The notes beneath the pieces are model-generated. The model saw nothing but the letters and a program-made list of their open reading frames with translations, did not search any database and was not told where the DNA came from. From Candidatus Bathyarchaeota archaeon (GTDB lineage Archaea > Thermoproteota > Bathyarchaeia > 40CM-2-53-6), in NCBI GenBank assembly GCA_963833125.1, contig CAWHWX010000016.1, positions 64,001-128,000 on the forward strand: DNA of 64,000 bases, given 5' to 3'. Both the position numbers and the translations under genes were made by a program. Every line of letters starts with the position of its first letter. Position 1 is the first letter of the stretch. Shown here in pieces: positions 5,365 through 61,969 of the stretch.

Positions 5365-7218
5365 TCACCTATCTTTCGGAACGAAGACCACAAAGTTCGC
5401 TCCCAGCCTGTTGACATCAGCCTTGATTGAATTGAGCAATGCGTGAAGTTGCCGAATTCGAAGGATATCTCTCTCGTCTCTAGAGTTGAGCATATCGCGA
5501 GTTACATGCGGCTGAACAATTATGACTTCTCTTGACAGTTCGCTGTATGGGGCGTTGGCGATCATTTGGGGCAATTTGAACCATTGATTGTTCGGGAGAC
5601 TCTTCCCGTTTTTCCAGGCTCTCCGTATCTTCGCGGCTTCGAGCTTGGGCCGAAGAGCATCTGCGAGCACGGTCCTTTCCAGGTACCGAAGATTCTTGAG
5701 AGCCTGAGAGCAAACCACCTCAAACGGAGCAACTGCTACCTTCCGCATGGATTTGGCACTTCCTGCTGCTTTAACGTGAATCAACCTTAGGACTGACCCT
5801 TTGTCTCTTACGGTATCAAGGTTGATGAAATCTGCCACCTCGCCGGCTCCGTCGTCGCACCAAAGCCAGCCTTTGTTGAACTTGCGCCAGACCCAGGTGA
5901 ACAGGCTCTGATCGTCAGTACGGCCGGTGCGACCGGGATCCTCACCTTCCTTCTTCTGCGGGTTGCGATAGGGCTTTTCTCGGTCGATTTCAATATGTCT
6001 AAAGGGATCGAAGGAGAAATCTCGGAAAGGCATATCATGGACACGCGGCTGGAAGAATGAGCCATCCGAATATGTATGTTGAGATTCGTAATAGACCTTG
6101 AACAAGTCACGCTGCCTGCAGAGCTCGGCGAATTCATCGAGCTTTTCACGGAACTCCGGCTCCACGGAGGACACTTCAACAATTGGATCCCATTCATTCC
6201 GCGATGGCGCAAATGTGACCTTTATGATGCCAATCTTGTTTCTCTGTTGGCTGACCTCGAGTGAGAAGTTGGCACCGTCTGTGTCCACAATAGACCAGGT
6301 TCCTGACAGCCACCATTGTTCCACCAATCGGCTCGTTTCGGGGTCAGTCTCGACAAGCTGCTCCGGTGGAAGCAGGCCGACGTCGAACGCATTATTCACC
6401 TCGTCTAGCGAATCCATCTCATTAGCGATAATTGGTATGGGCGCTTTCTGTTTCTTGCTGTGGGCGACAAGTTCGAGGGTTCTTTGGGTATGCTGGATGA
6501 ACTCCTGCCAGTCGTGGGCAGGCCCAATCCACACCTTGGCTTGATGCGGCGAGACTCCAACCATCTCGGCGCCTATCGTTTGTGCATATCCGCCGGACCT
6601 GGCGGAGGTGAAGTGATAAGTTTGATCGCCTAGGGGATCAAGTCCGTCGCGGAGGTCCCGCCCACCTAAAACCTTGTTATCCGCCTTTACAGATACCGAG
6701 CGGTGCAATCCTGAAAGCCACAGAGTGCGAATAGGCCTTTCGCTCAGCAGTGCGTTCAATGACCCAGCCGAGACCGGGCTCAATGATGACCAAGCTCGAT
6801 AGCCGCCCTTGCTTGTCGCACTCGTGAAACGCTTTCCCAGCCCTTTGTCAGACGTACACAGGGCAAGGAGTCTGCCATTTGCCAAGAGTACAATCAGGTG
6901 GTTAACTTTGTCTCGAGGCCCGTCTGGCCCAAGGAACCAGGCCACTGGCAACTCCAGTTTATAGCTCATCGCTGCCACAGATTCATCCGACTTGCCTGAT
7001 TCGAAAGTGGCAATGGAGAAGGAGCCGGTTTTGCCCTTCAACCTGCGGGCAGCCTGCTTGATGATGAAGCGAGACTCTGTAAGCAATTTGCGAATGAAAA
7101 CTGGCTCAAGTTTGTCTTGGGCTTCGAACACCGTAAAAGACTTATAGGGCCGCAGCGCTTCGAATGAAATCTTGGCCATAAAGCTCTCACAAACGCCGTC
7201 TTCCGAGGAACGGCTCAC
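5365..7218 (-). CDS. 617-aa protein with C-terminal putative PD-(D/E)xK-like nuclease domain
   Basis: Long clean ORF with the motif series CDDGAGEVADF...LIHVK...EVVCSQALKNL. Nuclease function is inferred. Confidence 0.55.
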   Translation of the reverse strand: MSRSSEDGVCESFMAKISFEALRPYKSFTVFEAQDKLEPVFIRKLLTESRFIIKQAARRLKGKTGSFSIATFESGKSDESVAAMSYKLELPVAWFLGPDGPRDKVNHLIVLLANGRLLALCTSDKGLGKRFTSATSKGGYRAWSSLSPVSAGSLNALLSERPIRTLWLSGLHRSVSVKADNKVLGGRDLRDGLDPLGDQTYHFTSARSGGYAQTIGAEMVGVSPHQAKVWIGPAHDWQEFIQHTQRTLELVAHSKKQKAPIPIIANEMDSLDEVNNAFDVGLLPPEQLVETDPETSRLVEQWWLSGTWSIVDTDGANFSLEVSQQRNKIGIIKVTFAPSRNEWDPIVEVSSVEPEFREKLDEFAELCRQRDLFKVYYESQHTYSDGSFFQPRVHDMPFRDFSFDPFRHIEIDREKPYRNPQKKEGEDPGRTGRTDDQSLFTWVWRKFNKGWLWCDDGAGEVADFINLDTVRDKGSVLRLIHVKAAGSAKSMRKVAVAPFEVVCSQALKNLRYLERTVLADALRPKLEAAKIRRAWKNGKSLPNNQWFKLPQMIANAPYSELSREVIIVQPHVTRDMLNSRDERDILRIRQLHALLNSIKADVNRLGANFVVFVPKDR

Positions 7219-33960: not shown

Positions 33961-34980
33961 ATGGCGACCATAACCGAAGTACAAGAAGTACCGCAAAACG
34001 ACTACGCAAAGTACGGCCTAACGAAGGATCTCTTACGTGAAATGCTCAGGAAGATGCTCATTATCAGAAAGTTCGAGGAGAAAGTCGAGGAACTATTCAT
34101 TGTCAAAGGGTTATTGATAGGCCCATCTCACCTGTACCTAGGCCAAGAGGCGATAGCGACAGGCGCAATGATGGCGCTTCAGCCCAACGATTTAACGGTA
34201 ACCACATATCGCGGCCACGGACACGCTCTTGCCAAAGATGTTCCGTCCAACCTCTGCATGGCGGAACTTTTCGGAAAATCAACGGGTAACTGCAAAGGGC
34301 TAGGCGGCTCCATGCACGTTGCAATCTACCCCAAAACGGGTTCCATTTACGCCACGGCTATAGTTGGTAGCGGAATACCCATCACCGCCGGGGTTGGGCT
34401 AGGCCTCAAACAAAAGAAGACAAAGCAGATTGCCGCCACATTCTTCGGCGACGGTGCTTGCAATACTGGCGCGTTCCATGAGGGTGTAAACCTCATCGCC
34501 CTTTGGAAGCTACCGGTTCTACTATTCTGCGAGAACAATCAGTACGGAATGTCCACCAATGTCAAGATGTCAGTTTCAAGCCCAAGCATCGCTGAGAGAG
34601 CCCGCTCCTACGGAATGGAAACGACGGTTGTCAATGGAAATGATGTTGTAGCGGTATACGCCGCAACCAAATCCGCTGCTGAAAAGGCCCGCAGAGACTC
34701 CACCCCAACGTTCCTTGAATGCCTAACTTACAAGATGAAAGGTCACGGAGTCTATGACAAGGGAGAATATCGTCCCAAGGAAGAAGTCGCGAAATGGCTC
34801 GAACGCGATCCTATTCTTACATTCAAGAAACGGCTCCTAGACCAGAAGATCATGACAAAGGCAGAACTTGAACAACTCGACGCGACAACACAACAAGAAA
34901 TCGAGGACTCGGTTAAATTCGCCATGCAAGGTTCACCTTTACCTTTCGACGAGATCGGAAACTACGTTTACGCAAAGTGA
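33961..34980 (+). CDS. TPP-dependent acetoin/2-oxoacid dehydrogenase E1 alpha
   Basis: HLYLGQEA, YRGHGH, GGSMH and GDG..ENN motifs. Confidence 0.92.
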   Translation: MATITEVQEVPQNDYAKYGLTKDLLREMLRKMLIIRKFEEKVEELFIVKGLLIGPSHLYLGQEAIATGAMMALQPNDLTVTTYRGHGHALAKDVPSNLCMAELFGKSTGNCKGLGGSMHVAIYPKTGSIYATAIVGSGIPITAGVGLGLKQKKTKQIAATFFGDGACNTGAFHEGVNLIALWKLPVLLFCENNQYGMSTNVKMSVSSPSIAERARSYGMETTVVNGNDVVAVYAATKSAAEKARRDSTPTFLECLTYKMKGHGVYDKGEYRPKEEVAKWLERDPILTFKKRLLDQKIMTKAELEQLDATTQQEIEDSVKFAMQGSPLPFDEIGNYVYAK

Positions 34981-34985
34981 TACCA

Positions 34986-35964
34986 ATGAAAGAACTCACT
35001 TATGCTGACGCACTCCGTGAAGCGCTGCGCGAAGAAATGATCCGTGATCCGAACGTGATACTTCTCGGGGAAGAAATCGGCGTCTTCAACGGGGTCTACA
35101 AGGTTACTAGAGGTTTGCTCGACGAATTCGGGCCTGAACGTGTTAGGGATACTCCAATCTCAGAAGCAGCCATCACTGGGGCGGCAGTGGGTTTGGCGTT
35201 GGCTGGCATGAGGCCCGTAGCCGAAATCATGTACATGGATTTCCTCCCCATATGCATGGATCAGTTGTCTACCCAAGCTGCAAAAATGCGCTTCATGAGT
35301 GGAGGCCAACTCCAGGTACCCATGGTCTTGAGAACCCAATACAGCCTCGGCCGACAACATGGATCACAGCACTCACAATTCACGCCCGCTTGGTTTCTGC
35401 AGGCACCAGGATTGAAGGTAGCATTGCCCGCTGATCCAAGCGACGCTAAAGGCCTACTGAAGTCAGCAATACGAGATCCCAACCCAGTCCTCTTCGTAGA
35501 GAGTGGCCTACTCTACCGAACCAAAGGACCAGTACCCGAAGAAGAATACCTAACCCCTCTCGGACAAGCAGCCGTGAAGAAGAAGGGGGACGATGTCACA
35601 ATTGTAGGAGTTTCAAGAATGGTTAATGAATCTCTCGCAGCCGCGAAAAAACTTGAAGATAATGGCGTCTCAGCTGAAGTCATAGATGTGAGAACAATCC
35701 AACCGCTCGACCTTGATACAATCGTCGAGTCAGTTAAACGAACTTCCAGGCTGGTTATCGCATCCGATGATGTAAAGAGAGGTGGCGTGGGAGCCGAGAT
35801 CTCAGCCTCAGTCACAGAGGCGGCCTTCGACTACTTAGACGCACCAATTACACGGGTCGCATGCCCGGACATGCCAATACCATTCTCACCCACCCCTCGA
35901 GCAGCAGTATATGCCCAACGCAGCGAGCGTAGTCCAAGCCGTCCAAACCATATTGGGCAAGTGA
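34986..35964 (+). CDS. Acetoin/2-oxoacid dehydrogenase E1 beta (frameshift ~35895)
   Basis: GEEIG, RVRDTPISE, RPVAEIM, QHSQ and LDAPITRV motifs; corrected end ILGK* at 35964. Confidence 0.92.
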
Positions 35965-35970
35965 TTCATC

Positions 35971-37137
35971 TTGACGCAAGTTGTGATGCCGCGTCTCGAT
36001 CCTGGAATGCAATCAGGCAAGATAGTTGAATGGCTGAAGAAGGAGGGCGAGTTGGTTAGAAAAGGCGAGCCCATACTCGTCGTAGAAGGAGAGAAAACCA
36101 CATTCGAAGTTGAAGCTCCAGACAGCGGCCCCTTAACCAAAATTCTAGCGAGCATCGGGACAGATGTCCAAGTTGCCGAACCAATCGCAATCATCGGAGA
36201 AGCCGGATCGGCAACACCCCAATCAGTACCAAACGAGAAAACTGAGCAAGAGCGACCACAGCAACCTTCTGACTGTCCCTGCCTCCGGAACTCCGTCGGA
36301 TCGGGTAATTGCATCTCCCGCAGCACGGCGTTTAGCCCAAGAATACGGCCTCGACCTAACCTCCCTAAAGGGAACTGGCCCAGGTGGCCGAATAACGCGA
36401 GAAGATATCCTCGCAGCAAAACAAAGCACACCAGCATCGCAGTCTACCCAAATCCTCTCAAAGATGCCTCAACCCGCCGTTCTAAAGAGAACGAAACTCG
36501 CAGGGATCAGAAAGGCTGTAGCCGAAAGACTTTCGTTCAGTGCGCGAACAGTCGTCCCAGTCACGATTACCATCGAAGCAGACGCCACGAAACTATTGGC
36601 GATGAAAGAGCAGAGCCACGTTGGGTTCTCAGCTCTCGGAGTAAAAGCAGCTGCAAAAGCATTGGGTGACCATACCGATGTTAACTCAACAATAGAAGGC
36701 GACGAAATTACAAATTACTCTGACGTAAACGTCGCCGTAGCCATACACACCGAACAAGGCCTAGTTGCACCTGTAATCAGGAATGCAAACAAACTATCTC
36801 TGAAGGAGATTAGCTCAACGATTGAAGAGCTCGCCAAGAAAGCTGCCGAGAATCGCCTAACAATTGAGAACTTGACTGGCGGAACATTCACGGTAACCAA
36901 CCTCGGCGCATTCGACGTCGAATCGTTCGCACCCGTCATCAACCCTCCTCAATGCGCAATTCTTGGTCTGGGCCGAATCGCCTACAAACCATTCGCCAAC
37001 GGAAGTCAGGTATCCGCGCTAGACCATCAACCCTACTAACACTAGTTTTCGATCATCGAATTATCGATGGTGTCCCGGCGGCTAAGTTCCTAAGGGACCT
37101 GAAACGTAATCTTGAGGAACCGGAAGGCCTGCTCTAA
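35971..37137 (+). CDS. Dihydrolipoamide acyltransferase E2 (two frameshifts)
   Basis: Lipoyl domain (EGEKT), peripheral-subunit-binding domain (ASPAARRLA..GTGPGGRIT), GGTFTVTNLG and DHRIIDG. Confidence 0.9.
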
Positions 37138-40010: not shown

Positions 40011-42677
40011 TCAGCTTAGCTTAAGCTCTGCAAAAACGTTCTCCTGTTCTCTCCGGATGGAGCAGCCAAGTTTTTCGCAGAGTCGGATCATCCTGAGATT
40101 CTCAGCCATCACTGTACCGTAGATCGATTCAATTCCCTTCTCCTTAGCGAATTCAATTAGCATATCGACTAACTTGACACCGAGACCCTTTCCCTGATAT
40201 TTGTCGGCAACCACGACTGCGAATTCTCCCCGTTTCTTATTGGGTTCGAGAATTAATCGGCTCACTCCGATCTCAAAAGTTCGGTTTCCTTCTCGGGTTT
40301 CGGCGATGATTGCCATCTCCCTGTCGTAGTCGATGTTGCAGAAACGGACGAGGGCCTCATGTGGGAGGTCCTTGATTATTTGGAAAAATCTGAATCGGCT
40401 CGTTTCCGTAGACAAGCCTCTTATGAATTCTAACTCTATGGGTTCGTCTTCCGGTTTTATGGGCCTTAGAGTAACTTCGGTCCCATCTTTCATTCTCCAG
40501 GGCATGACATATTTTGACGGGTAAGGAGTGATTACCAGATGGGGGTAGGGTTCGGTATGGTCGAGAGCGCGGGGATCAATAATCATCCTTGCGTCGAGAA
40601 CGGAGAATTCACCCTTGGAGGCGATGAGTGGGTTGATGTCCATCTCAGCGATTTCAGGGAAGTCAACGATTAGATTGGAGAAGCGTACCATGATCTCTTC
40701 GAGGGGTCGTATGTCGACAGGTTTCTTGTTCCGTAGACCTTTCGTAAGTGCTTTGAATATCTTTGTTTCTTCCATGATGCGATGTGCGAGAATCTGATTT
40801 AGCGGCGCGAGTCCGATCGATACATCGTTAATGAGTTCAACTCCTGTCCCGCCCATTCCAAATAGAATCACAGATCCAAAATCCTTGTCCTTTTTCGCGC
40901 CTAGGATGAGTTCGTAGTCGATCTCAGATGCCATTTTTTGCACATAGATACCGTCGATTTTAGCTTCAGGATACGCTTTGTGGGCTCTATCGATAATGGC
41001 CTTGTACGCATCCTTGACCGCTTGAGCTGACTCCATGCGGATAACGACTCCACCAATGTCCGTTTTGTGAAGAATGTCTTCAGACGAGATTTTCAACGCT
41101 ACTGGGTAACCAATGTCTAACGCGATCATTGCCGCTTGGTCTGCACTTTTACTCAACGCGCCCTTCGCTCTCGGGATTGCATAAGCATCGAGGAATCGGT
41201 CAACTTCAGATTGATTGAGGGCTTTTCGCGTCTTCGCTGCCTTGCGAATCAGTACTTTGAGATGGCTCTTTGGCGGAGAGAAGTCCACGCGTAATTCTTG
41301 TGGGGTTTGGTAGAGCTGATCGAGGTTTCTTCGGTATTGGTACATGTACGTGTAGGTCTTTATCGCTTCTTCAGGCGTTGAGTAAGTCGGTATGTCGTTT
41401 CGGTGGAATATTTCGCGACTTTCCCTAACGCTGCTCTCGCCCATCCAGACCGTAAGCATTGGCTTGCGTCTGTCCGCGGCGATTTTCGTAACGGCTTCGG
41501 CGAGCTGCGTGGGTTGAGTCGTTCCTTGGGGAGTGTAGATTACAAGGAGCCCATCAACATTCGGATCCGCAATGCAGGTCTTCACTGCGAGTTCATACCG
41601 AGAGACGTCAGCGTCCCCTAGTATGTCGAGTGGGTTTCCTCGGCTCCAGTATGGAGGAAGGGCTCCATTCAGTATTTTCATGGACTCGTCAGACAATTGC
41701 GCTAATTGGCCACCATGAGTGACAATTGAATCAGCTGCTAAGACCGCGGGTCCTCCGGCGTTGGTGACGATGGCTAAGTTCGGTCCCGCTGGCAGAAACC
41801 TTGAGTCTAGGACGGTGGCGCAATTGAAGAGGTCTCCAATCTCGTCGACCATCACAACGCCGGCTCTCTTGAAGGCGGCCTCGTAGACTGCGAAGTCACC
41901 CGCCAGTGCGCCTGTATGTGATGATGCTGCCTTTGCGCCCGCAGAGTTTCTTCCCGCCTTGATTACAATAATGGGTTTTGTGCGTGCAAAGCCTCTGGCC
42001 GAACTCATGAACTTCTTAGCATTTCCGACGCCTTCCATGTAGATGATGATGCTCCTAGTGTTTGGGTCCTCGCCAAGATAATCGATCATATCCCCATAAT
42101 CGATGTCTAGGGTCGATCCTAGCGAAGCAAAAATGCTGAAGCCTATGCCCGTGCTTACAGCCCAGTTGACTATCGCTGATCCCAATGCTCCGCTCTGTGA
42201 GATGAATGCAATTTGGCCAGGTTGAGGGTTGTCTCGGAGGAATGTGGCATTGAGGGCTACTTGTGGCCTCGCCACTCCCACACAGTTTGGTCCTAGAATC
42301 CGAATGTCGTGCATCGATTGAATTTGCTTAATCTCGCTCTCTAGTTTGGCGCCTTCAGCTCCGATCTCTCGGAACCCGGCCGAAATGATGACGGTGCCGT
42401 CCACGCCAGCTTTCGCGCACTCCGCTACTATGGACGGTACAGTCCTTGCCGGCGTAGCGATTACAGCCAGATCGACGTGTTCTGGTATCTTGGATATCGA
42501 TGGGTAACACTTCAATCCCAAGACGGTATCCTTGTTTATGTTCACTGGGTAGATTTTCCTGCGATCCTTCCCCAATAGTAGGTTTCTCGTCAGAGATTGA
42601 CCGATCGATCCCTCGCTCTCAGAAGCCCCGATTATAGCAACGACTTTGGGGTTCAGCATTTTCTCGATACTGGCCAT
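40011..42677 (-). CDS. Bifunctional NDP-forming acyl-CoA ligase-like / GNAT protein (Pat-type lysine acetyltransferase)
   Basis: CoA-binding AIIGAS, GPNC, SQSG, SHTG, NPLD, ATP-grasp HKTDIGGV, and a C-terminal GNAT domain (YQGKGLG). Confidence 0.9.
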   Translation of the reverse strand: MASIEKMLNPKVVAIIGASESEGSIGQSLTRNLLLGKDRRKIYPVNINKDTVLGLKCYPSISKIPEHVDLAVIATPARTVPSIVAECAKAGVDGTVIISAGFREIGAEGAKLESEIKQIQSMHDIRILGPNCVGVARPQVALNATFLRDNPQPGQIAFISQSGALGSAIVNWAVSTGIGFSIFASLGSTLDIDYGDMIDYLGEDPNTRSIIIYMEGVGNAKKFMSSARGFARTKPIIVIKAGRNSAGAKAASSHTGALAGDFAVYEAAFKRAGVVMVDEIGDLFNCATVLDSRFLPAGPNLAIVTNAGGPAVLAADSIVTHGGQLAQLSDESMKILNGALPPYWSRGNPLDILGDADVSRYELAVKTCIADPNVDGLLVIYTPQGTTQPTQLAEAVTKIAADRRKPMLTVWMGESSVRESREIFHRNDIPTYSTPEEAIKTYTYMYQYRRNLDQLYQTPQELRVDFSPPKSHLKVLIRKAAKTRKALNQSEVDRFLDAYAIPRAKGALSKSADQAAMIALDIGYPVALKISSEDILHKTDIGGVVIRMESAQAVKDAYKAIIDRAHKAYPEAKIDGIYVQKMASEIDYELILGAKKDKDFGSVILFGMGGTGVELINDVSIGLAPLNQILAHRIMEETKIFKALTKGLRNKKPVDIRPLEEIMVRFSNLIVDFPEIAEMDINPLIASKGEFSVLDARMIIDPRALDHTEPYPHLVITPYPSKYVMPWRMKDGTEVTLRPIKPEDEPIELEFIRGLSTETSRFRFFQIIKDLPHEALVRFCNIDYDREMAIIAETREGNRTFEIGVSRLILEPNKKRGEFAVVVADKYQGKGLGVKLVDMLIEFAKEKGIESIYGTVMAENLRMIRLCEKLGCSIRREQENVFAELKLS

Positions 42678-42817
42678 TGTCAACTCGTCTGATTCTGAGC
42701 TTACGGCTAGTGATAAACGGGTTATCGATGGTTCCTGACTATGACAATTTGAATTGGGGACGATTTGGAACCGAAACTTTCACACATAAGCGAATCCGTG
42801 CCTTTTCTGACATTTGG

Positions 42818-43804
42818 TTAGCGCATCAAAAATGCCAGTACGTATCCCAAGGTCAGCGTCGCTCCAAAGGTCATCTGGAGAAAGGCCGTGCCTCGAACAG
42901 CGCGGCTGAGCGGCTTGCCTTCCACTCCGGAAGCGACAAACCGAGTGAGCCGATACGCTTGTGGAATCGTTAGGAACGCTAAGAGGGTCGACAGAGGCGC
43001 AGAGTTAGTCGCAACAAGCCCTGCTAAGATGATATACGCTCCAGCGATCATCGCGTAAAAGACCAAACGGGAGAAAACCCTACCTCGCTCGATGCCCCAC
43101 GACCTACTTGCCAGTACTGCCCAAGTGATCCGATTTCGCTCCTTGTCTTGTACAATGTCTCGCAGGTTGTTAGCGTGTAGGATGGCCATTACTAGGAGCC
43201 CTACGGGGAGGGAGACAAGCAGGGGGGACCAAGCGAGGCTTCTAGCTTGAACATAGTAGCTGGCAACGACCATGACAGGACCCATGAAGATGAAAACCTC
43301 GAGCTCCCCAAGGCCCCGGTAGCCAAGCGAGACAGGTTTCGCTGTGTAGAACCAAGCTGCCAAAACACTCGTTAGTCCGAGAATTAGGATGATCCATCCA
43401 ACTTGCTTGACTATGTACAAACCGACTATGACACCGAAAGCAAAAGCTACTATTGCAGCCCAGAGCACCTGCCTCGGCCTGAGTTTTCCTTCAAGAATTA
43501 CGCCTGCGGGGCCCAAAGAGTCCGGTTTGTCAACCCCTTGCACATAGTCAAAATACTCGTTAGCCAAGTTTGTTCCTGCCTGCATGGCGACGGACCCGAA
43601 TAGGGTGAGCAGAAAGAGAAACCAGTCCGCATGTCCACCATACCACGCTATAGCGGAACCTACAAGCACGGGGACTATCGACGCTGGATAGGTGAATGGC
43701 CTGAGTGCAATGTACCAGACATGTAACGAATGCCTGTCATTCCGTTGCGGCACAGCCATAACACGTCTTAACCGCGAACCATTCGGGTGCCTGTAATTCA
43801 TCAT
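42818..43804 (-). CDS. menA: 1,4-dihydroxy-2-naphthoate prenyltransferase
   Basis: LRPFT, NEYFDYVQGVD, GYRGLGE and NNLRDIVQD motifs. Confidence 0.9.
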   Translation of the reverse strand: MMNYRHPNGSRLRRVMAVPQRNDRHSLHVWYIALRPFTYPASIVPVLVGSAIAWYGGHADWFLFLLTLFGSVAMQAGTNLANEYFDYVQGVDKPDSLGPAGVILEGKLRPRQVLWAAIVAFAFGVIVGLYIVKQVGWIILILGLTSVLAAWFYTAKPVSLGYRGLGELEVFIFMGPVMVVASYYVQARSLAWSPLLVSLPVGLLVMAILHANNLRDIVQDKERNRITWAVLASRSWGIERGRVFSRLVFYAMIAGAYIILAGLVATNSAPLSTLLAFLTIPQAYRLTRFVASGVEGKPLSRAVRGTAFLQMTFGATLTLGYVLAFLMR

Positions 43805-43822
43805 GTCAGGTTGCTTGGTTAC

Positions 43823-44633
43823 TTACCAAGGAGGTTGATTTCGAAAGCGAGCGTAATTTGGTGCGCGCTTCTCAAGGAAGGCTTTCGTACCTTCCTTGCA
43901 TTCGTCACTCGAGTAGTAAAGCGCCGTAGCTCCGTGTGCGAGGTTTTGGATGCCGTAGACATGATCCGTGTCTGAGTTGAAGGCGTACTTCAGAAAGCGC
44001 AAAGCAGTCGGTGCACGCTGGAGAAGTTCCTTAGCCAAGGACATCACCTCGTTTTCGAGTTGATCAGGTGGAAACACAAAGTTGACGAGCCCCATGTCGA
44101 GAGCTTCTTGGGCAGAGTAACGACGGCACAAATACCAGATCTCTCGAGCTTTCTTTTCGCCAACAATGCGTGCGAGATAAATCGACCCGAAACCACCGTC
44201 GAAGCTACCGTATTTGGGTCCGATTTGTCCGAAGACCGTGCGAGTGGAGGCAACAGTCAGGTCACATAACACATGAAGGACGTGCCCCCCACCAATGGCG
44301 TACCCATCAACCATTGCAATGACGGGTTTCGGTATCTCTCGTATCAACCGGTGGAGGTGGGTAACTTGCAGTCTCGGAGTTCCCGGAATCGTCCTCGTAG
44401 CCGCCCTCACCGCGAATGCTAACGTCGCCCCCTGAACAGAAGTTACCATTTGTCCCGGTGAGAACAACAACTCCAACTTCCCGATCGTACCAAGCGTCTA
44501 AGAAAGCCTGTCGCATCTCATCTATCGTCAGCGGTCGAAAGGCATTGAGCACTTTAGGCCGGTTCATCCGAACGAACGCTACGCCGTCCTTCTTTTCGTA
44601 GAGTATGTCTTGGAACTCCATTTCAAATACCAC
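43823..44633 (-). CDS. menB: 1,4-dihydroxy-2-naphthoyl-CoA synthase (frameshift ~44385)
   Basis: [36 protein letters not shown] and [11 protein letters not shown] motifs. Confidence 0.93.
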
Positions 44634-44677
44634 ATTTCCTAGTTTTAGTCAGCGCTTGCTTCTTAAGACGGTCGTTT

Positions 44678-45919
44678 TCAAACCAAGCCGAGCGATCTCA
44701 GGCGGGCAATCTCATTTCGGGAGTGGCCGAGCATTTCTTGGAGCACTTCATCGGTGTGTTCGCCTAGGTCGGGCGAAGGACCTTGGGGGCCTGAAGAAGC
44801 GCCGTCTACTTTGAAGGGGGTGTTGGCAACTTTCCAGTTTCCCAATCTCTTGTGGGGTATCTCTGCGATCATGCCTCGGTAAAGTACCTGAGAATCCTTG
44901 GCTACGGAGTCAATAGCGTTGACTGGACCGGATGGAATTTCAAGCCTAGAGAATTCTTCAAGCCAGGCTTGAGAAGTTTTCTTGCGCATAGCTTCTTCGA
45001 TCAAGGGCGCGAGAACATCGTAGTTCTGTACTCTAGATGGCGCGTCACTAAAGCGAGGATCTTTCGCGAGTTCAGGGTGCCCGATCGCGGAACAGAAGCG
45101 GTTCCAAGGCTCAGAGCTGTCGGAGATTAGCGCAACCACGATGTATCCGTCTTGTGTGGCAAATGATTGAAAAGGAACTGCGGCTGGGTGGCGTGATCCC
45201 AATGGCCCCGGCACCTTACCCGTGGCAAAGTACCTTGAAAACGCATTCTCCATCATAGTTACTTGACAATCTAACATTGAAATGTCGATATTTCGCCCCT
45301 GTCCGGTGCGTTCCCTTTCCCATAGGGCGACGAGTATTGCTAACGCAGCAAAGAGTCCGGCAACGCTGTCGCCAAGCGAGGCCCCGGGCCGCACAGGCCG
45401 CCCATTGGGTTCCCCGGTCACGCTCATCATGCCCCCCATCGCCTGAACAATGATGTCTAGAGCCGGATAGTGGGTGTAGGGGCCGCTTTGGCCGAAGCCT
45501 GAGATGGATGCGTAAATCAGGCGGGGATTCAGAGCCCTCACACTCGCATAGTCGAGCCCGAATCCCTTCATTGTTCCAGGCACGAAGTTCTCAACCAGAA
45601 CATCAGCGTGCTGGCACAGTTCCCGTGCCATCTTCTGTCCCTCCTCGCGGGAGAGATCTAGGGTGACGCTTTTTTTCCCTCGATTTACGCTCATGAAATA
45701 TGCGCTGTCTCCGCTTACTTGAGGACCCAAGCGCCGCGCTTCATCTCCCAAGCCTGGCCGCTCAACTTTGATCACCTTCGCGCCAAGGTCTGCGAGAAGC
45801 ATCGTGCAGAAGGGACCAGAAAGCAGGTGGCTGATTTCTAGGACCGTTATCCCAGCTAGAGGACTTAACGCAAGGCCTCTCGCGGGAGAGTCTCGATCGA
45901 TCATGAGGCACAAGATCAA
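44678..45919 (-). CDS. Family III (CaiB/BaiF) CoA-transferase
   Basis: PLAGITVLE, GPFCTMLLADLGAKVIKVE, NRGKKS, ENF, SISGFG; catalytic Asp in PGASLGD; PDLGEHTDEVL. Intact ORF. Confidence 0.93.
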   Translation of the reverse strand: MILCLMIDRDSPARGLALSPLAGITVLEISHLLSGPFCTMLLADLGAKVIKVERPGLGDEARRLGPQVSGDSAYFMSVNRGKKSVTLDLSREEGQKMARELCQHADVLVENFVPGTMKGFGLDYASVRALNPRLIYASISGFGQSGPYTHYPALDIIVQAMGGMMSVTGEPNGRPVRPGASLGDSVAGLFAALAILVALWERERTGQGRNIDISMLDCQVTMMENAFSRYFATGKVPGPLGSRHPAAVPFQSFATQDGYIVVALISDSSEPWNRFCSAIGHPELAKDPRFSDAPSRVQNYDVLAPLIEEAMRKKTSQAWLEEFSRLEIPSGPVNAIDSVAKDSQVLYRGMIAEIPHKRLGNWKVANTPFKVDGASSGPQGPSPDLGEHTDEVLQEMLGHSRNEIARLRSLGLV

Positions 45920-45988
45920 GCTCAGCGAAATTATACTCTGCGGTTGGGCTGTTGCTCGCTGAGGCAGGTTCAGCGCTAGAGCGACTAA

Positions 45989-46800
45989 CTACCAGTGCGA
46001 TTCACGGAGGAAGTCGAGTACGACTCTGTTGAACTCTTGAGGCTTCTCTATGTGCGGGGCATGTCCTGCGCCTGCTATAATGGAAAGACGGCCGTTTCGT
46101 AGTTTACTGCACATCTCTTTTGCGATCGCGCTGAACTTGTGGTCGTATTCACCAGCAATGCAGAGGACCGAAATGTTAAGCTTGGAAAGCGATTTGTGGA
46201 AGGATGGTTGGACACCGGAGCCGGCCTGTGCGCAAAGAATTCGCGAGCCCCGTGGGATTGTTTGCGAGCCGTTGGTTTCTGATGTGTTCTTGGACTTTGC
46301 GGGGAAGCAGTTTTTGAGTGGCGAATATTGGTTGTTGCTCCCAGTATTTCGAGAATTTCTCAACGCCTGCTTTCGTGATTAGGCGTGCCAGCGCCTCATC
46401 GCGTTTCTTCCTGCGTGTCCTTTGTTTTGGTTCGATAATTCCTGGGGATGCGCCTTCAAGCACTAGGCACCCGCACTTGTTAGGCATTAACGCAGCCGCT
46501 GCGAGTGCGATTCGGCCTCCAATAGAGTATCCTAACCAGCAAGCACGAGAGACATCTGATTTGTCGAGGACTGCGGCAATATCGACGATGGAGCGTTGAA
46601 TACGATATCTCTTGGGATCATCGGGGGCATCTGAACCACCGTGCCCTAGCAAGTCGACTGTGATGATGGTGTATCCATTCTGTGCCTCTTGTACGAACTG
46701 ACTCCAAGTGGACATGGATCCTGCGAATCCGTGAAGTGCGACGATTGCTGGTCCCGAACCCGCGGACTTTGACATTGAGGTTGATTTCGTTGACCAGCAC
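45989..46800 (-). CDS. menH: SHCHC synthase (alpha/beta hydrolase; frameshifted)
   Basis: LHGF, GYSIGGR (Ser), GEYDHKF (Asp), AGHAPHIE (His); lies directly after menD. Confidence 0.85.
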
Positions 46801-46804
46801 GCCT

Positions 46805-48599
46805 TCAGGTCCGCTCCGTGAGCGTGCTCTCCGCCGCCTCTGTCGAAAGGGACCAAATGCGACGATGAAGCTCAACGTTTCGGTCTCTGTCAGTTTGCAA
46901 TTCCACTACAGCTGTGCCTTTGGATCCGATGTTCCGTGAAACGGCGGTGTGGAATTCTTCCCATGATGTAACCTTGGAATAGGTTAGACCGTAAAGGGAG
47001 GCCGCTGCTTGGAAGGTAAGGCCGTGTGGAGTTGCGAAGTACTTTTCGAAGTAGTCCTCGTACTCTCGCTGGGCAAGAAAAGAGAAAATGCCCCCGCCGT
47101 CATTGTTTGCTAATACGATTGTTGTGTTAGGGTTGTATTTCTTTGCTGCCAGCAGGCCATTCATGTCTTGATAGAACGAAAGGTCGCCGACTACGAGTAC
47201 TGTTGGCTCTTGGGTAACTACGCTGGCTCCTAGGGCGGTTGAGATCACACCATCTATTCCGCTTGCTCCTCGATTGGACAAGAATCGAATCTCTTGAGAG
47301 GTTGACGGATAGAATGAGTCAAGGTCACGCACCGGCATGCTGTTGCCAGCAAACAGCGTCGCTTTGTTCGGAACGAAAGTCGCTAAATTGGTGAAAATCT
47401 TCCCTTCGAACATCTCTTCGATCTTGCTCATCTGGTCATGAATAACCTGGCGAGTTCTCTCAGCAACTCGCATCCACAGTCCGGACCATTCTCCCTTAGG
47501 GCGAGTCGCGGTCTCAGCGGCAAGTTCTCTTGCGAATTGATTGGGGTCCGTCTGAACCATGTCGGTAGCAGTATGCATTGGGTCTTGCCAGTTCCCTTCT
47601 TGGATTAGTATTTGGCGGGCTCGGTGATTTTGCTCAATGTAGTTTTGTAATGCTTTAGACGTGGGTGTCGCACCGAACCGCAGGATAATTTCAGGTTCCA
47701 ATTCCCGAACCATTTTCGTGGAGCGTAGGAAATCGTCGTAGCAGTCAACGTTCAGTCCTCGGTCGTGTATGCCGCATCGAACTTGAGATAGGGGGTCGGC
47801 TAGTATTGGGAAACCTAGGCGGTTGGCTAACGTCGAGACTGCATGTGGGAAGCCTAAATCATCTTGTGGGCCGCAGACAATTATTCCATTCCTCAGAGAC
47901 TGTATCTCACTTCCCAACTCCTTGACTTTCTCTATGTTGGTGGAACGTCGCCCGTTCTGCACATCGGTGTAAGGTCTGCCCTTCTTTCGACCTTCCCAAG
48001 CGTCTTGGACTTCGACGGAAGTTTGCTCAGGGATATCCGAGGGAACGATTTTGGGTACTAATGGTTCTCCGAACGGGAAGTTGATCTGCACAGGACCAGC
48101 GGGCGATTGAATCGCAGTGCTCAATGCGCGGCATGTCATTTCACGCACATACCTCAGCAAATCAAGCTTCATTTCTGGACTAGCCATGTTGACGGACCAT
48201 TTTGTGTGCCCTCCGTACATCCGGGTCTGGTCGATTGTTTGATTCGCACCCCATTCCCACAACTCTGGAGGACGGTCCGCTGTCAAAATCAGGATTGGCA
48301 CATGTGAATAGCACGCCTCGACCACAGCGGGAAAGAAGTTAGCCGCTGCTGTACCAGACGTGCTGACGATGGCGACCGGCTGGTTAAGGGCGCGGCTCAT
48401 CCCAAGCGCGAAATACGCTGCTGAACGCTCATCAGAATGGAGCCCAGACTTTGATGAGCTGCTGCTGCGCCAGGCTCATCACCAAGGGCGTTGATCGCGA
48501 ACCGGGGCAGATGCATGCATGTCGCAGCCCCGAACGGGCCAGTTCATCAACAAATGCTTCGGAGAAAGCGTAGTTGCGATTCGGTGGGAGCGGCATCAT
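46805..48599 (-). CDS. menD: SEPHCHC synthase (frameshift ~48443)
   Basis: CPGSRSTPL, DERSAAYF, TSGTAAAN, ADRP, NSMPVRD, NRGASGIDG and GDLSF..NNDGGGIF motifs; ATGA overlap with menF. Confidence 0.93.
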
Positions 48600-50047
48600 G
48601 CCACTCCCAAGGCGGTCAGGAGCGGCTTGAATTTTATCATGGTTTCCTGATCTTCACGGTCTGGGTCGGAGCCCGAAACAATCCCGGCCCCAGCGTACAG
48701 TAACGCCTCATTGCCGCGCAAGAGTGCACATCGGATTGCGATGGCAAATTCCCCGTTTCCATTCTTGTCAACCCATCCGACAGGTCCCGTGTACCAACCG
48801 CGATCAAACTTCTCAAGCCTCTCGATCATTTCAAGGGCTGGCTCGAGAGGCGTGCCACCTACAGCTGGCGTTGGATGTAAGCCACTCACAAAATCTAGGA
48901 CATTGGAACCTTTCTTTGGTCGACCCGTAAAACGGGTCGCTAGATGCTGAACGTTGCCAAGTCGCATCAAGTGGGGAGCGTCGTCCCACTGAAGTTTAGA
49001 GCAGAGCCTTCCCATTCGTTCAGAAATCCAGTTAACGACAACTTCGTGTTCCATTCGTTCCTTAACATTTCCTAACAGCCATTCCGAAAGCTGTGAGTCC
49101 TCGTTCTCCGAAGTGCCGCGGGGAGCCGAACCTGCTAAACAGGTCGAACTCACTTCTTCTCCATGAATGCTCACCAACTCCTCAGGTGAAGCCCCCACAA
49201 AAGATGTCCCTCGACGACAGAAAGCGAATACGCGACATTCAGGATAATTAGCTGCGAGGCTTCGGAGGACGGCTTCTGGAGGTATTGGTATTCCAGCGCG
49301 TAACTTGAGGGTACGTGCCAAAGTGACTTTGGTTAGCCTTCCATCTTTGACTTCGTCCAGAGCCTGTTCCACACTTCGCCGCCAAAGATCATCAGCCGAT
49401 TGAGATTTTATTGAAGCCGACACAGGTTTAGATGAGTCACCAGGCGAGTCGAAAAGCTCGGCAGCTTGAAGCGTCAGATCCTTTAGTACAGAATCAACGT
49501 CCGTGCGTCCGTTAACGACGACATTGACGGTCAACCAGCGCCGACCGTTCGGTTGGGATGTGATCATCCATCGGGGCAGTGTCAGGAGGCCATCGTGAAA
49601 ATCTTCCCAAAGTCCATCAGCAGGCGGTCGTGGGTTGAATCGGAATCCTCCCATGAAAACCGGTCCGGGACCGCCGTTTTCCTCAACAATCGCCGGGCTC
49701 ATCGTGTCCTGGAGTAAGGTAGCGGCTTGTTGGAATCTCCGAGGGCCCTCAACGACTAGGTCAGCAGCATTACCCGCACCTACTATCCAAGATTCGTCAG
49801 CGGGGAGGGCCCAATAATTCCTAGTATTATCAACTCGCGCTGCAGCGGAAAAGACATGCACCGGATCAATTTCATGTGCAAGGTGCTGGGTGAGCGATAC
49901 AAGTACCGGTCTGTTCACTTCGGTTGAGCGTCGTTTTCCATCAGAAATGAGCCCCAGCACTCTGTCCAAGGAAATCCTATAGGGACGTTGAGGTAAGCGA
50001 TCCATCGCACTGTCTTGCGACCGTATCCCTATGGATCTCTCTCGCAT
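48596..50047 (-). CDS. menF: Isochorismate synthase
   Basis: KVTLAR, GASPE, LAGS, KERMEH, VQHL, LHPTPAV, AIRCA and AGAGIV motifs. Confidence 0.92.
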   Translation of the reverse strand: MRERSIGIRSQDSAMDRLPQRPYRISLDRVLGLISDGKRRSTEVNRPVLVSLTQHLAHEIDPVHVFSAAARVDNTRNYWALPADESWIVGAGNAADLVVEGPRRFQQAATLLQDTMSPAIVEENGGPGPVFMGGFRFNPRPPADGLWEDFHDGLLTLPRWMITSQPNGRRWLTVNVVVNGRTDVDSVLKDLTLQAAELFDSPGDSSKPVSASIKSQSADDLWRRSVEQALDEVKDGRLTKVTLARTLKLRAGIPIPPEAVLRSLAANYPECRVFAFCRRGTSFVGASPEELVSIHGEEVSSTCLAGSAPRGTSENEDSQLSEWLLGNVKERMEHEVVVNWISERMGRLCSKLQWDDAPHLMRLGNVQHLATRFTGRPKKGSNVLDFVSGLHPTPAVGGTPLEPALEMIERLEKFDRGWYTGPVGWVDKNGNGEFAIAIRCALLRGNEALLYAGAGIVSGSDPDREDQETMIKFKPLLTALGVA

Positions 50048-50285
50048 TCTCTCTCGCTTCCTCTTCTTCCCGAAGACAGCCTTTGTCGCTCATAATTTCT
50101 CAGACAGAAGAACCTATCCTAATTCTAAGCTCCAATGACCAACTGCGCAAAGTAGGCACGGTATCGTTGATAAAAGGAGAACTGCAAATAGATGGGGACA
50201 TATGGCGTTACTTAGCCAGAACGCCGTTGGATTCATTTGATGGAGTACGAAAGGCATCATTTAGGCTAGACGGGAGGTTGGCAAA

Positions 50286-51434
50286 ATGAATTCTCCGCAA
50301 CTGACGCCTATCGACTCCCTAGAGTTGCGCATTATCCGGTTGCCGCTTGTTGCTCCGTTCGAGAGCAGTACTAGCGTAGAAACCGTCAAGGAGGCTCTGC
50401 TCGTGCTCGTTGAAAAGGAAGGGGTTGTTGGTTATGGGGAATGCGTTGCTGGGACTGGGCCTTGGTATAGCGAAGAAACGATAGAGTCTGCGGGATACGT
50501 CATAAAGCAATTCCTAGCGCCATTACTCTTTTCAAATGCTTTCACGAATCCTGCACAGTTTCTTGATGGCACTCGACGATTAAGGGGGAACAATATGGCA
50601 GTAGCTTCGGTCGAGATGGCACTTTGGGATCTCATGGGAAAATTAAAGCGACAACCGCTTTCCAAGCTACTGGAAGGTTCCAAGACAGAGGTTGAAGTTG
50701 GAGTAAGCGTAGGGATTCAACCCTCAATTGAAAAACTGGTCGATAAGGTCGCATTGCGTGTTGCAGAAGGATACAAGCGAATAAAGACAAAAATTAAGCC
50801 AGGGTTCGATCTCGAACCCGTGAGAGCTATCAGGAAACGCTTTCCTGATATTCCTCTCCAAGTGGACGCGAACTCGGCCTACACCCTTGAGGATTTGCCT
50901 CTACTGAAACAACTTGACGGGTTCAACCTGTTATTGATTGAGCAGCCACTGGCGCCTGACGATATCATTGATCATTCAAAATTGCAAAAGCACCTTTCGA
51001 CACCGGTTTGCCTTGACGAGAGCATACGTAGCATGGACGACGCGAGGCAGGCGATAGAAATTGATGCGTGCAGGGTGATAAATATCAAACCCGGACGGCT
51101 GAGAGGTCTGAAATGTTCGAGACAATTGCATGATTTCTGTATGGCACGGAAAATTCCAGTATGGTGCGGGGGAATGCTTGAAACTGGCATTGGTAGAGCG
51201 TTTAATGTCGCGTTAGCTTCCTTGCCGGGATTTACTCTTCCAGGTGACACGTCCGCTAGCAGACTGTATTTCAAGAAGGACATAATCACCAAAGAGTTCG
51301 AACTAACTGAGAACGGAACGCTTGAGGTACCGCGTGAACCTGGAATAGGGGTTCAAGTGGACACGAAGTTTCTTGAATCACAGACAATTTCGGAGGAAAG
51401 GATACTGCCACGAGCAATCGGTTTCAAACCGTAA
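50286..51434 (+). CDS. menC: o-succinylbenzoate synthase (OSBS/NSAR-type enolase superfamily)
   Basis: KTKIK, VDAN, IEQP, LDES, WCGGMLE and PGDTS motifs; divergent from menF. Confidence 0.9.
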   Translation: MNSPQLTPIDSLELRIIRLPLVAPFESSTSVETVKEALLVLVEKEGVVGYGECVAGTGPWYSEETIESAGYVIKQFLAPLLFSNAFTNPAQFLDGTRRLRGNNMAVASVEMALWDLMGKLKRQPLSKLLEGSKTEVEVGVSVGIQPSIEKLVDKVALRVAEGYKRIKTKIKPGFDLEPVRAIRKRFPDIPLQVDANSAYTLEDLPLLKQLDGFNLLLIEQPLAPDDIIDHSKLQKHLSTPVCLDESIRSMDDARQAIEIDACRVINIKPGRLRGLKCSRQLHDFCMARKIPVWCGGMLETGIGRAFNVALASLPGFTLPGDTSASRLYFKKDIITKEFELTENGTLEVPREPGIGVQVDTKFLESQTISEERILPRAIGFKP

Positions 51435-59940: not shown

Positions 59941-60822
59941 TTAATTTAGGATAAGCTTTGGTCGTTTGATGAGTTTTGCAATTTCGCCGGGTTTGAGTGC
60001 GATCCTAACCCCAGCTGCCCTGAGTGCTTCTATCTTGGTCTCAGCGGTTCCGGCCTTACCTGTGATTATTGCACCTGCGTGACCCATTCTTTTTCCTGCT
60101 GGAGCTCCACGCCCGGCGATGTAGGCTACGATGGGTTTGGGATACTTTGTTTTCTTGACATAATCCGCCGCCGTCTCCTCGGCGTTACCGCCGATTTCGC
60201 CAATCATCGCGATGGCTTTTGTTGCAGGGTCCTTCCTGAACATTGTGAATACATCGACAAAACTCATGCCGACTACGGGGTCCCCGCCGACTCCGAGACA
60301 TGTTGATTGGCCCAAGCCGGCGTTGGTGAGGCTTGCTGCAATTTCGTAGGTTAGGGTTCCGCTTCTGGATACTAATCCTACCTCTCCGGGTTTGAAGATG
60401 TGGCTAGGCATGATGCCTAGTTTGCATTGGGCTGGTGTTATGATTCCGGGAGTATTGGGACCGATGATCGTTGTCCCCTTTCGTCGTGCAATTTCCATGA
60501 TCTGGATTTCGTCTTTAACCGGGATTCCTTCGGTGATGACCACGACTGGGTTTAAGTTGGCAGCTATCGCCTCAAGCACTGCATCTTTAGCATGAGGTGC
60601 CGGCACGAAGATGATTGACGCATCTGCTTTCACCTTTTCAAGTGCTTCTTGCGCAGTATCAAACACAGGAACGGTGTGAACTTTTTGGCCGCTTCGTCCG
60701 GGGGTGACTCCGGCGACGATCTTTGTCCCGTATTCGAGCATTAGTTTGGTGTGGAATTGTCCTTGTGAACCGGTTATGCCCCAGACAATTGCCTTTGTTT
60801 TGCGCCCTACCAGAATTGCCAT
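59941..60822 (-). CDS. sucD: Succinyl-CoA synthetase alpha subunit
   Basis: GITG, GVTPG, GPNTPG, SRSGTL, GEIGG and MGHAGA motifs. Confidence 0.93.
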   Translation of the reverse strand: MAILVGRKTKAIVWGITGSQGQFHTKLMLEYGTKIVAGVTPGRSGQKVHTVPVFDTAQEALEKVKADASIIFVPAPHAKDAVLEAIAANLNPVVVITEGIPVKDEIQIMEIARRKGTTIIGPNTPGIITPAQCKLGIMPSHIFKPGEVGLVSRSGTLTYEIAASLTNAGLGQSTCLGVGGDPVVGMSFVDVFTMFRKDPATKAIAMIGEIGGNAEETAADYVKKTKYPKPIVAYIAGRGAPAGKRMGHAGAIITGKAGTAETKIEALRAAGVRIALKPGEIAKLIKRPKLILN

Positions 60823-60823
60823 G

Positions 60824-61969
60824 TTAGGATGCACCCGAAGTTAGGGAGACGGCTTTCTCTGCTGCTTCTTCCATACTGTTCAAGGATGGGATGTGAGCCG
60901 CTGCAAGAATCTTCTGTCCTTCTTTTTCGTTTGTGCCAACGAGTCTTATGACCATGGGTATCGTTATGCCCATTTTCTTCTGAATGTCTAGAATGGCTCG
61001 GGCTACATCGTCGCAACGCGTGATTCCTCCCATGATGTTGATGAGAAGAACCTTCACTCTCGGGTTCGCAAGGACGATCTCCAGTGCGGCCGCAATTCTC
61101 TCTTCACTGGCACCTCCTCCTACATCGCAGAAGTTGGCGGGTTTTCCTTTGTAGTCAATGATCATATCCAAGGTGGCCATTACGAGACCCGCTCCATTTC
61201 CGATTATTCCTACACTTCCTTCTAGTTCAACGAACGCCAGCCCTTTCTCTCGTGCCTTGATTTCGAGGTCAGTCATGTCTGGCTCCATAGTCTTTGAACG
61301 CTCCTGGAATTTCTTCTGTCTGAATAGTGAGTTGTCGTCTACGAGTATTCTGAGGTCTGCGGCAATGATATCGCCCGCTTTTGTTTCGATCAGGGGGTTT
61401 GATTCGATAAGTTCCCCGTCGTATTGCAGCAAGATCTGGTAGAGTTTACCGATAATACTCGCGACTTTGGCCATCTGGCCCCCGGAATAGCCAAGTTGCT
61501 TTGCAACGGTTCTGGCTTCGAATTCCTGTAAACCCAATAGCGGATCAATTCTGTACCGGATGATCTTCTCGGGGTGAGACGAGGCAACCTCCTCGATATC
61601 GACTCCTCCCTCTGGTGAGCAGAGGATTGTGTAACATTTGGATCCTCGATCCACAACTATACTCACATAACGCTCGTATTTGCTCTCAAGTTGTTCCTCT
61701 ACCAGAACTTTTGCAACCTTCTCTCCCTTCACAGTCATGGTAAGGATCGATCGTGCAACTCGTTCTGCTTCTTCAGGACTAGAAGCCGGTTTGATTGCTC
61801 CAGCCTTACCGCGGCCGGCCACGAGGACTTGCGCCTTAATCATCGATGGTCGTCCTAGTTTTGTATAAGCGTCTTTTGCCTCGGCTGAGGTTGATGCGAT
61901 AAATCCGGTTGGAACGGGCAGGCCGTATTGGCGCGCGATCTCCTTGGCCTCATATTCAAACAGCTTCAA
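60824..61969 (-). CDS. sucC: Succinyl-CoA synthetase beta subunit
   Basis: MKLFEYEAK, KAQV..GRGKAG, GNGAGL, PANFCDVGG and RLVGTN motifs. Confidence 0.93.
   Translation of the reverse strand: MKLFEYEAKEIARQYGLPVPTGFIASTSAEAKDAYTKLGRPSMIKAQVLVAGRGKAGAIKPASSPEEAERVARSILTMTVKGEKVAKVLVEEQLESKYERYVSIVVDRGSKCYTILCSPEGGVDIEEVASSHPEKIIRYRIDPLLGLQEFEARTVAKQLGYSGGQMAKVASIIGKLYQILLQYDGELIESNPLIETKAGDIIAADLRILVDDNSLFRQKKFQERSKTMEPDMTDLEIKAREKGLAFVELEGSVGIIGNGAGLVMATLDMIIDYKGKPANFCDVGGGASEERIAAALEIVLANPRVKVLLINIMGGITRCDDVARAILDIQKKMGITIPMVIRLVGTNEKEGQKILAAAHIPSLNSMEEAAEKAVSLTSGAS

Follow-up and report, generated by a model that had tools for sequence, protein, structure and literature searches.

A 64-kb stretch of archaeal DNA, hereafter the window (contig C16, positions 64001–128000, of a Candidatus Bathyarchaeota genome), carries a menaquinone biosynthesis (men) operon in which a gene for a family III CoA-transferase (CoAT) lies directly upstream of menB and no menE is recognisable. 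Because CoAT recurs in men clusters, its men-linked members form one clade, MenE was not found and MenE adjoins menB elsewhere, CoAT is very probably an enzyme of the men pathway, and it appears to be the best candidate for making the CoA thioester of o-succinylbenzoate (OSB). Judged from gene content and homology, it probably makes OSB-CoA by CoA transfer and replaces MenE, with succinyl-CoA or 1,4-dihydroxy-2-naphthoyl-CoA (DHNA-CoA) as the donor.

The men operon contains an intact CoA-transferase gene

The window belongs to a 3.07-Mb metagenome-assembled genome of 39 contigs (G000; 87.8% complete, 7% contaminated). The men cluster is also borne by three archaeal relatives of the same genus (G015, G016 and G022), and eight Dehalococcoidia genomes (G041–G045, G748, G790 and G853) have a men cluster of the same CoAT type. 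Together these 12 genomes are called CoAT-type below. G016 (96% complete, three contigs) served as the intact-gene reference for tblastn searches.

On the minus strand of the window (42818–50047), menF, menD, menH, CoAT, menB and menA follow one another in this order, and menC is divergent on the plus strand. Coordinates, Pfam scans and NCBIfam scans agreed with a preliminary description of this DNA on the gene order, the strand and the divergent menC; the overlaps or gaps of under ~90 nt that it gave were measured as spacings of 18–70 nt, or overlap. MenF, MenD, MenC and MenA pass their equivalog cut-offs in the window, and the intact G016 orthologues pass for MenD (492.5 bits), MenH (263.3 bits, cut-off 208.55) and MenB (365.6 bits, cut-off 342.7). 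By these profile matches, the window is predicted to hold the full gene set of the classical OSB pathway (MenF, D, H, C, B and A), MenE excepted. The pathway would be a variant of one already known, and the enzyme family involved is known too.

The transferase is intact, as had been claimed, and its place directly before menB was confirmed. Residues 21–389 span positions 1–366 of the 366-position PF02515 profile (cut-off 23.3 bits), which was the only Pfam match; an AMP-binding domain was absent. The open reading frame (ORF) is listed from a TTG codon and the conserved part begins near residue 18–20, so the true start may be later. The proposed catalytic residue, D184 in GASLGDSVAG, is invariant in 10 of 10 CoAT orthologues. 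In alignments it matches an Asp of SUGCT and approximately residue 169 of formyl-CoA transferase (Frc), whose nucleophile is Asp169. The ten orthologues have a mean column identity of 72% and share a distinctive invariant stretch, SMLDCQVTMMEN.

CoAT scored below every named family III equivalog cut-off. Its best NCBIfam match was succinate–glutarate CoA-transferase (NF052585, 346.3 bits against a cut-off of 750), followed by NF008511 (318.6/522), NF041294 (301.3/700), TIGR03253 (281.4/504) and NF002914 (125/413). The nearest structures were human SUGCT (9br6, 292 bits) and YfdE (4hl6, 288 bits), and then formyl-CoA transferases.

CoAT recurs beside menB and forms a men-linked clade

Scans for CoAT gave 61 loci from species genomes and 80 from metagenome contigs, in which men genes were then sought by tblastn with the G016 men proteins. 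At 56% or more identity to the G016 CoAT, men genes adjoin the transferase in 36 of 43 loci; at 55% or less, they do so in 0 of 98. Five of the seven remaining loci in the first group are short contigs with little flank; the other two are L137, which has 3.6 kb upstream without men matches and a contig that ends at CoAT, and L141, which is considered below. In a tree of 145 CoAT proteins, a single clade (33 rows, support 100) takes in the men-linked CoATs; 24 of its rows adjoin menB and four more adjoin other men genes. None of the 72 well-flanked rows outside this clade adjoins menB. Recurrence of the transferase in related men clusters, which the preliminary description had named as a check on its proposal, was therefore observed.

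CoAT stays immediately upstream of menB in two domains of life and among MenB proteins as little as 64% identical. Among the archaeal copies, CoAT has a dN/dS of 0.04–0.10, indicating purifying selection; dN was 0.064 and dS 0.78 for the window–G016 pair, and the other pairs were near dS saturation.

In a locus from the sister clade of the men-linked CoATs (L084:997–2951), a crotonase-family gene, 33% identical to MenB, lies immediately upstream of CoAT. This pair is a possible clue to the genomic setting that the transferase had before its recruitment.

MenE is not recognisable in genomes with the CoA-transferase

MenE was defined by NCBIfam model TIGR01923 (cut-off 330.15 bits). A tblastn search with 11 ANL proteins found no MenE-like ANL ligase in the window, in agreement with the earlier claim for the 64 kb, and the finding held for the genome as a whole, in which the best TIGR01923 match reached 105.5 bits. 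MenE over the cut-off was found in 0 of 41 close relatives of the host and in 0 of the 12 CoAT-type genomes. The best ANL proteins of the CoAT-type genomes passed no MenE model; they passed the long-chain fatty-acid ligase model PRK06187 (487–538 bits, cut-off 476), and the only ANL match of G042 at E ≤ 1e-20 was an acetate–CoA ligase (903.7 bits, cut-off 729). The best ANL protein of G016 has counterparts with the same score in genus members without men genes. In the window and in 360,810 bases of men-linked loci, tblastn detected a single ANL gene, in L124; this ligase is native to the archaea, with orthologues of 79% identity in genomes that lack men genes.

The host class and phylum could not supply MenE-type genomes for comparison in a cross-tabulation, since they are archaeal and nearly devoid of MenB. 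The comparison set was instead 301 Dehalococcoidia genomes sampled from the class of G041. MenB exceeded its cut-off in 94 of them, and MenE did so in 34 of these 94. Thirty of the 34 have menE on the contig of menB and within 4 kb of it, indicating that MenE, where present, fills the slot held here by CoAT; two more MenE proteins below the cut-off also adjoin menB. With a CoAT profile, the orthologues of G041, G748, G790 and G853 scored 672–707 bits and paralogues no more than 597; in all three of these genomes in which the orthologue and menB share a contig, the two genes are adjacent.

The preliminary description had also suggested testing for an anti-correlation of the transferase with menE. 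MenE was found in 0 of 3 CoAT-type MenB-positive genomes of the sample against 34 of the 91 others, and in 0 of 12 from all sources. A statistical anti-correlation was not demonstrable, as the CoAT-type genomes are one lineage and not independent.

Two further arrangements were seen among the Dehalococcoidia. Many genomes with neither MenE nor a men-clade CoAT (loci L207–L240) keep only menB and menA together. Eleven genomes of one lineage (L208–L216, L218 and L223) have a formyl-CoA-transferase-like family III gene upstream of a tetR-menF-menD-menH-menC-menB-menA operon. This gene (e.g. L208:2001–3206 and L223:739–1971) scores 408–423 bits against a subfamily cut-off of 442 and is followed by TPR-repeat genes. 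These operons have no CoAT before menB, yet their MenB groups with the CoAT-type MenB, with weak support (Shimodaira–Hasegawa-like approximate likelihood ratio test, SH-aLRT, 82). We considered the Frc-like gene as a second recruitment but did not adopt this reading: it lies 1.4–2.9 kb upstream of tetR-menF with TPR genes intervening, it occurs in one lineage, and there are ~70–85 CoA-transferase candidates per genome (29 in G829).

Hotdog thioesterase genes in CoAT-type genomes

The preliminary description had reported no hotdog thioesterase in the 64 kb. No 4HBT or 4HBT_2 match was present in the window, nor was a hotdog gene found in any men locus examined. The absence did not extend to the genome: PF03061 matched four genes outside the window in G000, the nearest at C16:304904. 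Four such matches were found in each of G016 and G015 and one in G042, while the 2.6-Mb genome of G041 had no PF03061 or PF13279 match. Five of five MenE-type Dehalococcoidia also had no hotdog gene near their men clusters. A missing hotdog gene in the cluster is therefore no evidence that MenI has been replaced, and we discarded it as a discriminator. These negatives cover the hotdog families PF03061 and PF13279; other thioesterase families and a specific MenI model were outside the search.

Proposed function of the CoA-transferase

In the proposed reaction, CoAT would take CoA from an acyl-CoA donor through Asp184 as the nucleophile (OSB + acyl-CoA → OSB-CoA + acid). MenB would then cyclise OSB-CoA to DHNA-CoA, and no ATP would be spent at OSB activation. 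The donor could be succinyl-CoA or another central acyl-CoA, DHNA-CoA, or the two together, if a central acyl-CoA primed a loop. The nearest characterised relatives (SUGCT, YfdE and mesaconate CoA-transferase) use a succinyl- or acetyl-CoA donor, and by homology to them succinyl-CoA would be the default. OSB itself is a dicarboxylate, an aryl-substituted 4-oxobutanoate whose side chain is of the succinyl type; in OSB-CoA, the thioester is on the aliphatic carboxyl. By analogy, the chemistry of CoAT would fit OSB, since its relatives use dicarboxylates as acceptors, with succinyl-, acetyl- or formyl-CoA as the donor. The sequences show the gene content, the synteny, the clade structure, the lack of a recognisable MenE, the purifying selection and the direction of transfer; from these we infer the substrate, the donor and the replacement of MenE. 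The strongest single argument for an essential role of CoAT is that a lineage without men genes received seven genes and kept them under selection, CoAT included, but not MenE.

Several observations weigh against OSB activation by CoAT. Neither a recognisable MenE nor a men-clade CoAT was found in 55 of the 94 MenB-positive Dehalococcoidia. In 34 of these genomes, no ANL gene was detected in the 20 kb around menB, and six MenE-type controls all showed theirs; in five, a relaxed threshold recovered only ligases of 270–302 bits, far from menB. Dehalococcoidia may thus activate OSB by an unrecognised enzyme, which could serve the CoAT-type clusters too. G041, G043–G045 and G790 have generic PRK06187-type ligases that score 258–290 bits with the MenE model, and the archaea have ADP-forming acyl-CoA synthetases; either could activate OSB. 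G000, the genome of the window itself, is only 87.8% complete. The association of CoAT with men genes amounts to essentially one origin and one transfer, so that genome counts are not independent. Finally, the clade member L141 (819–1976, 60% identical) lies among unrelated genes, with no men gene in 10 kb; its neighbours encode a 6PGDH-type dehydrogenase, alpha/beta hydrolases, and MFS and ABC transporters.

As a special case of the proposed reaction, CoAT might run a closed CoA loop (OSB + DHNA-CoA → OSB-CoA + DHNA), in which it would replace both MenE and MenI and CoA would be catalytic. Such recycling of CoA from product to substrate is established for the family III enzymes CaiB, FldA and BaiF, and both the lack of a thioesterase gene in the cluster and the lack of any hotdog match in G041 agree with it. 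The loop is nevertheless rather unlikely, given the hotdog genes of G000, G015, G016 and G042, the MenE-type men clusters that have no such gene either, the restriction of the negatives to hotdog families, and the succinyl- or acetyl-CoA donors of the nearest characterised relatives; it would also need a primer, and none is encoded.

We consider it improbable that CoAT works only at the end of the pathway, where it would unload DHNA-CoA onto succinate or acetate in place of MenI, with OSB-CoA coming from an unrecognised ligase. The 55 Dehalococcoidia without MenE and CoAT imply that some unrecognised OSB activation must exist, and most CoAT-type genomes hold generic ANL ligases or ADP-forming synthetases that might perform it. 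However, the sole ANL match of G042 is an acetate–CoA ligase, the best in G000 falls far below the MenE cut-off, CoAT holds the slot that MenE has in other clusters, and MenI is not normally encoded in the operon in Dehalococcoidia. It is more improbable still that CoAT is a passenger unrelated to menaquinone, kept by inheritance and transfer within the operon. The single origin of the association and the location of L141 are compatible with a passenger, and Dehalococcoidia hold tens to over 200 family III CoA-transferase candidates each, which makes chance neighbours common. Against this stand the fixed position upstream of menB in both domains, the strong purifying selection after transfer, the well-flanked paralogues, none of which adjoins menB, and an operon that is otherwise gapped exactly at a CoA-dependent step. 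Replacement of MenE by CoAT remains the reading that we favour.

The men operon was transferred from bacteria to an archaeon

The preliminary description had treated the operon as an ordinary bacterial one; the MenB tree and the rarity of MenB in archaea indicate an interdomain transfer into an archaeon instead. The archaeal ribosomal protein L19e is present in G000, G016 and G015 and absent from G041 and G042. Among the 41 close relatives of the host, MenB exceeded its cut-off in G015, G016 and G022, to which the split gene of G000 is added, and the men cluster is present in only 4 of the 23 host-genus genomes searched, counting G000. A MenB match at E ≤ 1e-70 was found in 5 of 401 genomes from the host class, all in the family of the window's genome, and in a set of 401 genomes from the phylum G000 alone had MenB (0 of the other 400). 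In a MenB tree of 57 rows, rooted at the midpoint only, the archaeal MenB proteins form one clade (SH-aLRT 98) nested in the bacterial MenB of CoAT-type clusters (support 100). Because of this nesting and of the rarity of MenB in archaea, the sequences point to a single acquisition of the men operon by a Bathyarchaeia-like archaeon from Dehalococcoidia-like bacteria. The bacterial operons have the order tetR-menF-menD-menH-(menC reversed)-CoAT-menB-menA, and the archaeal ones are without tetR.

Directly after menA, in the flank and outside the pathway, lies a gene for an acyl-CoA synthetase fused to a GNAT domain (ACS-GNAT). It was matched in 38 of the 41 relatives at 52–91% identity, including genomes without men genes, and was not found adjoining the bacterial CoAT-type men clusters. 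By this distribution, it is native to the archaea and identifies the host side of the insertion. As it is present mostly in relatives without men genes and absent from the bacterial clusters, it was rejected as a member of the module or as an OSB activator. A mis-binned bacterial contig was ruled out by the 1.57-Mb contig on which the G016 men cluster sits, by this native flank gene, and by L19e in G000, G016 and G015.

The futalosine pathway was also considered as the ancestral quinone route of the genus and was rejected, as the MqnA/D family (PF02621) had no match in five of five genus genomes searched. A UbiE/MenG-like methyltransferase occurs in genus genomes with and without men genes alike and was uninformative. 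The public record of one locus, L114 (G022 contig C57), names it 'Candidatus Acidiferrales bacterium'. This label looks wrong: the genome is grouped with G000, G015 and G016 in one genus and has archaeal-type men genes.

Frame switches in menD, menH and menB

Alignment to the G016 proteins by tblastn revealed four frame switches, in menD (~48442–48444), menH (~46750–46768 and ~46227) and menB (~44376–44383), so that menD is read in two frames, menH in three and menB in two. The main frame of menD covers 46805–48400, and residues 1–52 lie in another frame at 48444–48599. We compared the window with Logan contigs from four runs of three studies, which are 90–99% identical to the stretch; no RNA data set was listed as containing it. 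All four breaks correspond to single extra bases in the window assembly relative to these short-read contigs: the contigs of all four runs are one base short at 48442 and at 46227, and those of two runs at 44376 and at 46768. At 48013, the contigs of all four runs are three bases shorter, which is an in-frame length difference inside menD.

The frame switches are very likely assembly errors. The alternative, that they are real and that the men cluster of this genome is a decaying pseudogene cluster, is improbable. Four switches spread over three genes, none of them in a long homopolymer, would agree with decay, as would their uneven spread, which leaves menF, CoAT, menA, menC and the 890-amino-acid flank gene unbroken. 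However, the extra bases are absent from contigs of populations 95–99% identical to the window, the orthologous men clusters of G016 and G015 are unbroken, and other genes of the G000 assembly are split too, among them an ANL ligase on C9, CoA-transferase paralogues on C26 and C38, and genes on C2 and C3. The case against real frameshifts is weakened by the origin of the contigs, which derive from relatives whose identity with the assembled strain is unproven.

The copies on C2 (15437–17844) and C3 (17088–19735) are extra copies of ACS-GNAT, 97–98% identical to window positions 40011–42683 and split or with stops. They suggest that co-assembled strains have left redundant contigs and that the consensus is error-prone in general.

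Genes of the operon and its surroundings

The genes of the operon and the flank gene are listed in Table 1. The menC and menF products are 82% and 80% identical, respectively, to their G016 orthologues. Genes for a succinyl-CoA synthetase lie ~10 kb away from the men operon (59941–61969); the beta subunit was scanned, and a 297-amino-acid ORF alongside is presumed from its position to be the alpha subunit. The window also encodes an alpha/beta pair of 2-oxoacid dehydrogenase E1 (33961–36029). Two long ORFs, at 5365–7218 (minus strand, 617 amino acids) and 8914–11682 (plus strand, 922 amino acids), had no Pfam match at E ≤ 1e-5.

Table 1. Genes of the men operon and its flank (window positions), with profile scores.
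Gene and product	Position	Strand	Profile matches and remarks
menC, o-succinylbenzoate synthase	50286..51434	+	TIGR01928 354.9 bits, cut-off 200.65; Pfam MR_MLE_N + MR_MLE_C
menF, isochorismate synthase, unbroken	48596..50047	-	TIGR00543 326.9 bits, cut-off 224.75; Pfam Chorismate_bind
menD, SEPHCHC synthase	46805..48599	-	TIGR00173 389.4 bits, cut-off 244.2; one frame switch
menH, SHCHC synthase	45989..46875	-	TIGR03695 171.9 + 68.5 bits (two pieces), cut-off 208.55
CoAT, family III CoA-transferase, 413 amino acids, intact	44678..45919	-	Pfam PF02515 433.5 bits
menB, DHNA-CoA synthase, two pieces	43823..44633	-	TIGR01929 257.1 + 90.8 bits, cut-off 342.7
menA, DHNA polyprenyltransferase, unbroken	42818..43804	-	TIGR00751 171.5 bits, cut-off 102.15; Pfam UbiA
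ACS-GNAT, ADP-forming acyl-CoA synthetase–GNAT fusion (Pat-like), 890 amino acids	40011..42683	-	Pfam CoA_binding_2, Succ_CoA_lig, ATP-grasp_5, GNAT

Discussion

The classical menaquinone pathway is regarded as completely worked out; its MenE step is considered obligatory, and MenE is a drug target. CoAT is proposed to give MenB the same product as MenE, an AMP-forming enzyme of the ANL superfamily, and it occupies the same place beside menB. The two have unrelated folds, and their chemistry differs: MenE works by adenylation, whereas CoAT would transfer CoA through an Asp-bound anhydride. Unlike MenE, CoAT would use no ATP and would require an acyl-CoA donor, and no MenE model matches it.

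The closest relatives of CoAT are SUGCT, the acetyl-CoA:oxalate enzyme YfdE and succinyl-CoA:mesaconate CoA-transferase, with which it shares the full-length CoA_transf_3 domain, the conserved Asp and, if OSB is its substrate, a dicarboxylate acceptor. It differs from them in scoring far below their cut-offs, in forming its own clade with the invariant SMLDCQVTMMEN, and in its genomic context. Enzymes of the CaiB, FldA and BaiF type belong to the same family; they are embedded in a pathway and load the incoming acid with CoA from the outgoing product. Their operons encode a priming ligase such as CaiC, but the men operon has none, and CoAT reaches 125 bits with the L-carnitine CoA-transferase model, against a cut-off of 413. 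A family III enzyme that acts on an aryl-substituted dicarboxylate of the succinate type is the succinyl-CoA:(R)-benzylsuccinate CoA-transferase BbsEF (9fn0 chains, 157 and 146 bits). BbsEF is distant from CoAT, heteromeric and catabolic, serving anaerobic toluene degradation in another genomic context.

The preliminary description claimed that no menaquinone pathway of this kind had been described. Our literature search of open full text, with subscription journals and supplements outside its scope, likewise turned up no description of an OSB CoA-transferase or of any CoA-transferase in menaquinone biosynthesis. One paper (PMC6189191) does no more than speculate on unspecific peroxisomal CoA-transferases in early algae.

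If CoAT activates OSB, a textbook enzyme would have been displaced by a non-orthologous one that works by CoA transfer. Two ATP equivalents would be saved per quinone, and the displacement would explain why automated reconstruction calls the menaquinone pathway incomplete in these genomes. The question of OSB activation in Dehalococcoidia is wider than one operon, as the 55 MenB-positive genomes without a recognisable MenE or a men-clade CoAT indicate. If the closed loop also operated, the segment from OSB to DHNA would be free of ATP; a self-contained module of seven genes could then have crossed from Dehalococcoidia to Bathyarchaeia-like archaea, and an archaeal lineage without quinones would have gained menaquinone. 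Some Bathyarchaeia-like archaea carry a complete men operon of bacterial origin that is under selection, and this bears on quinone respiration in an abundant group of sediment and soil archaea.

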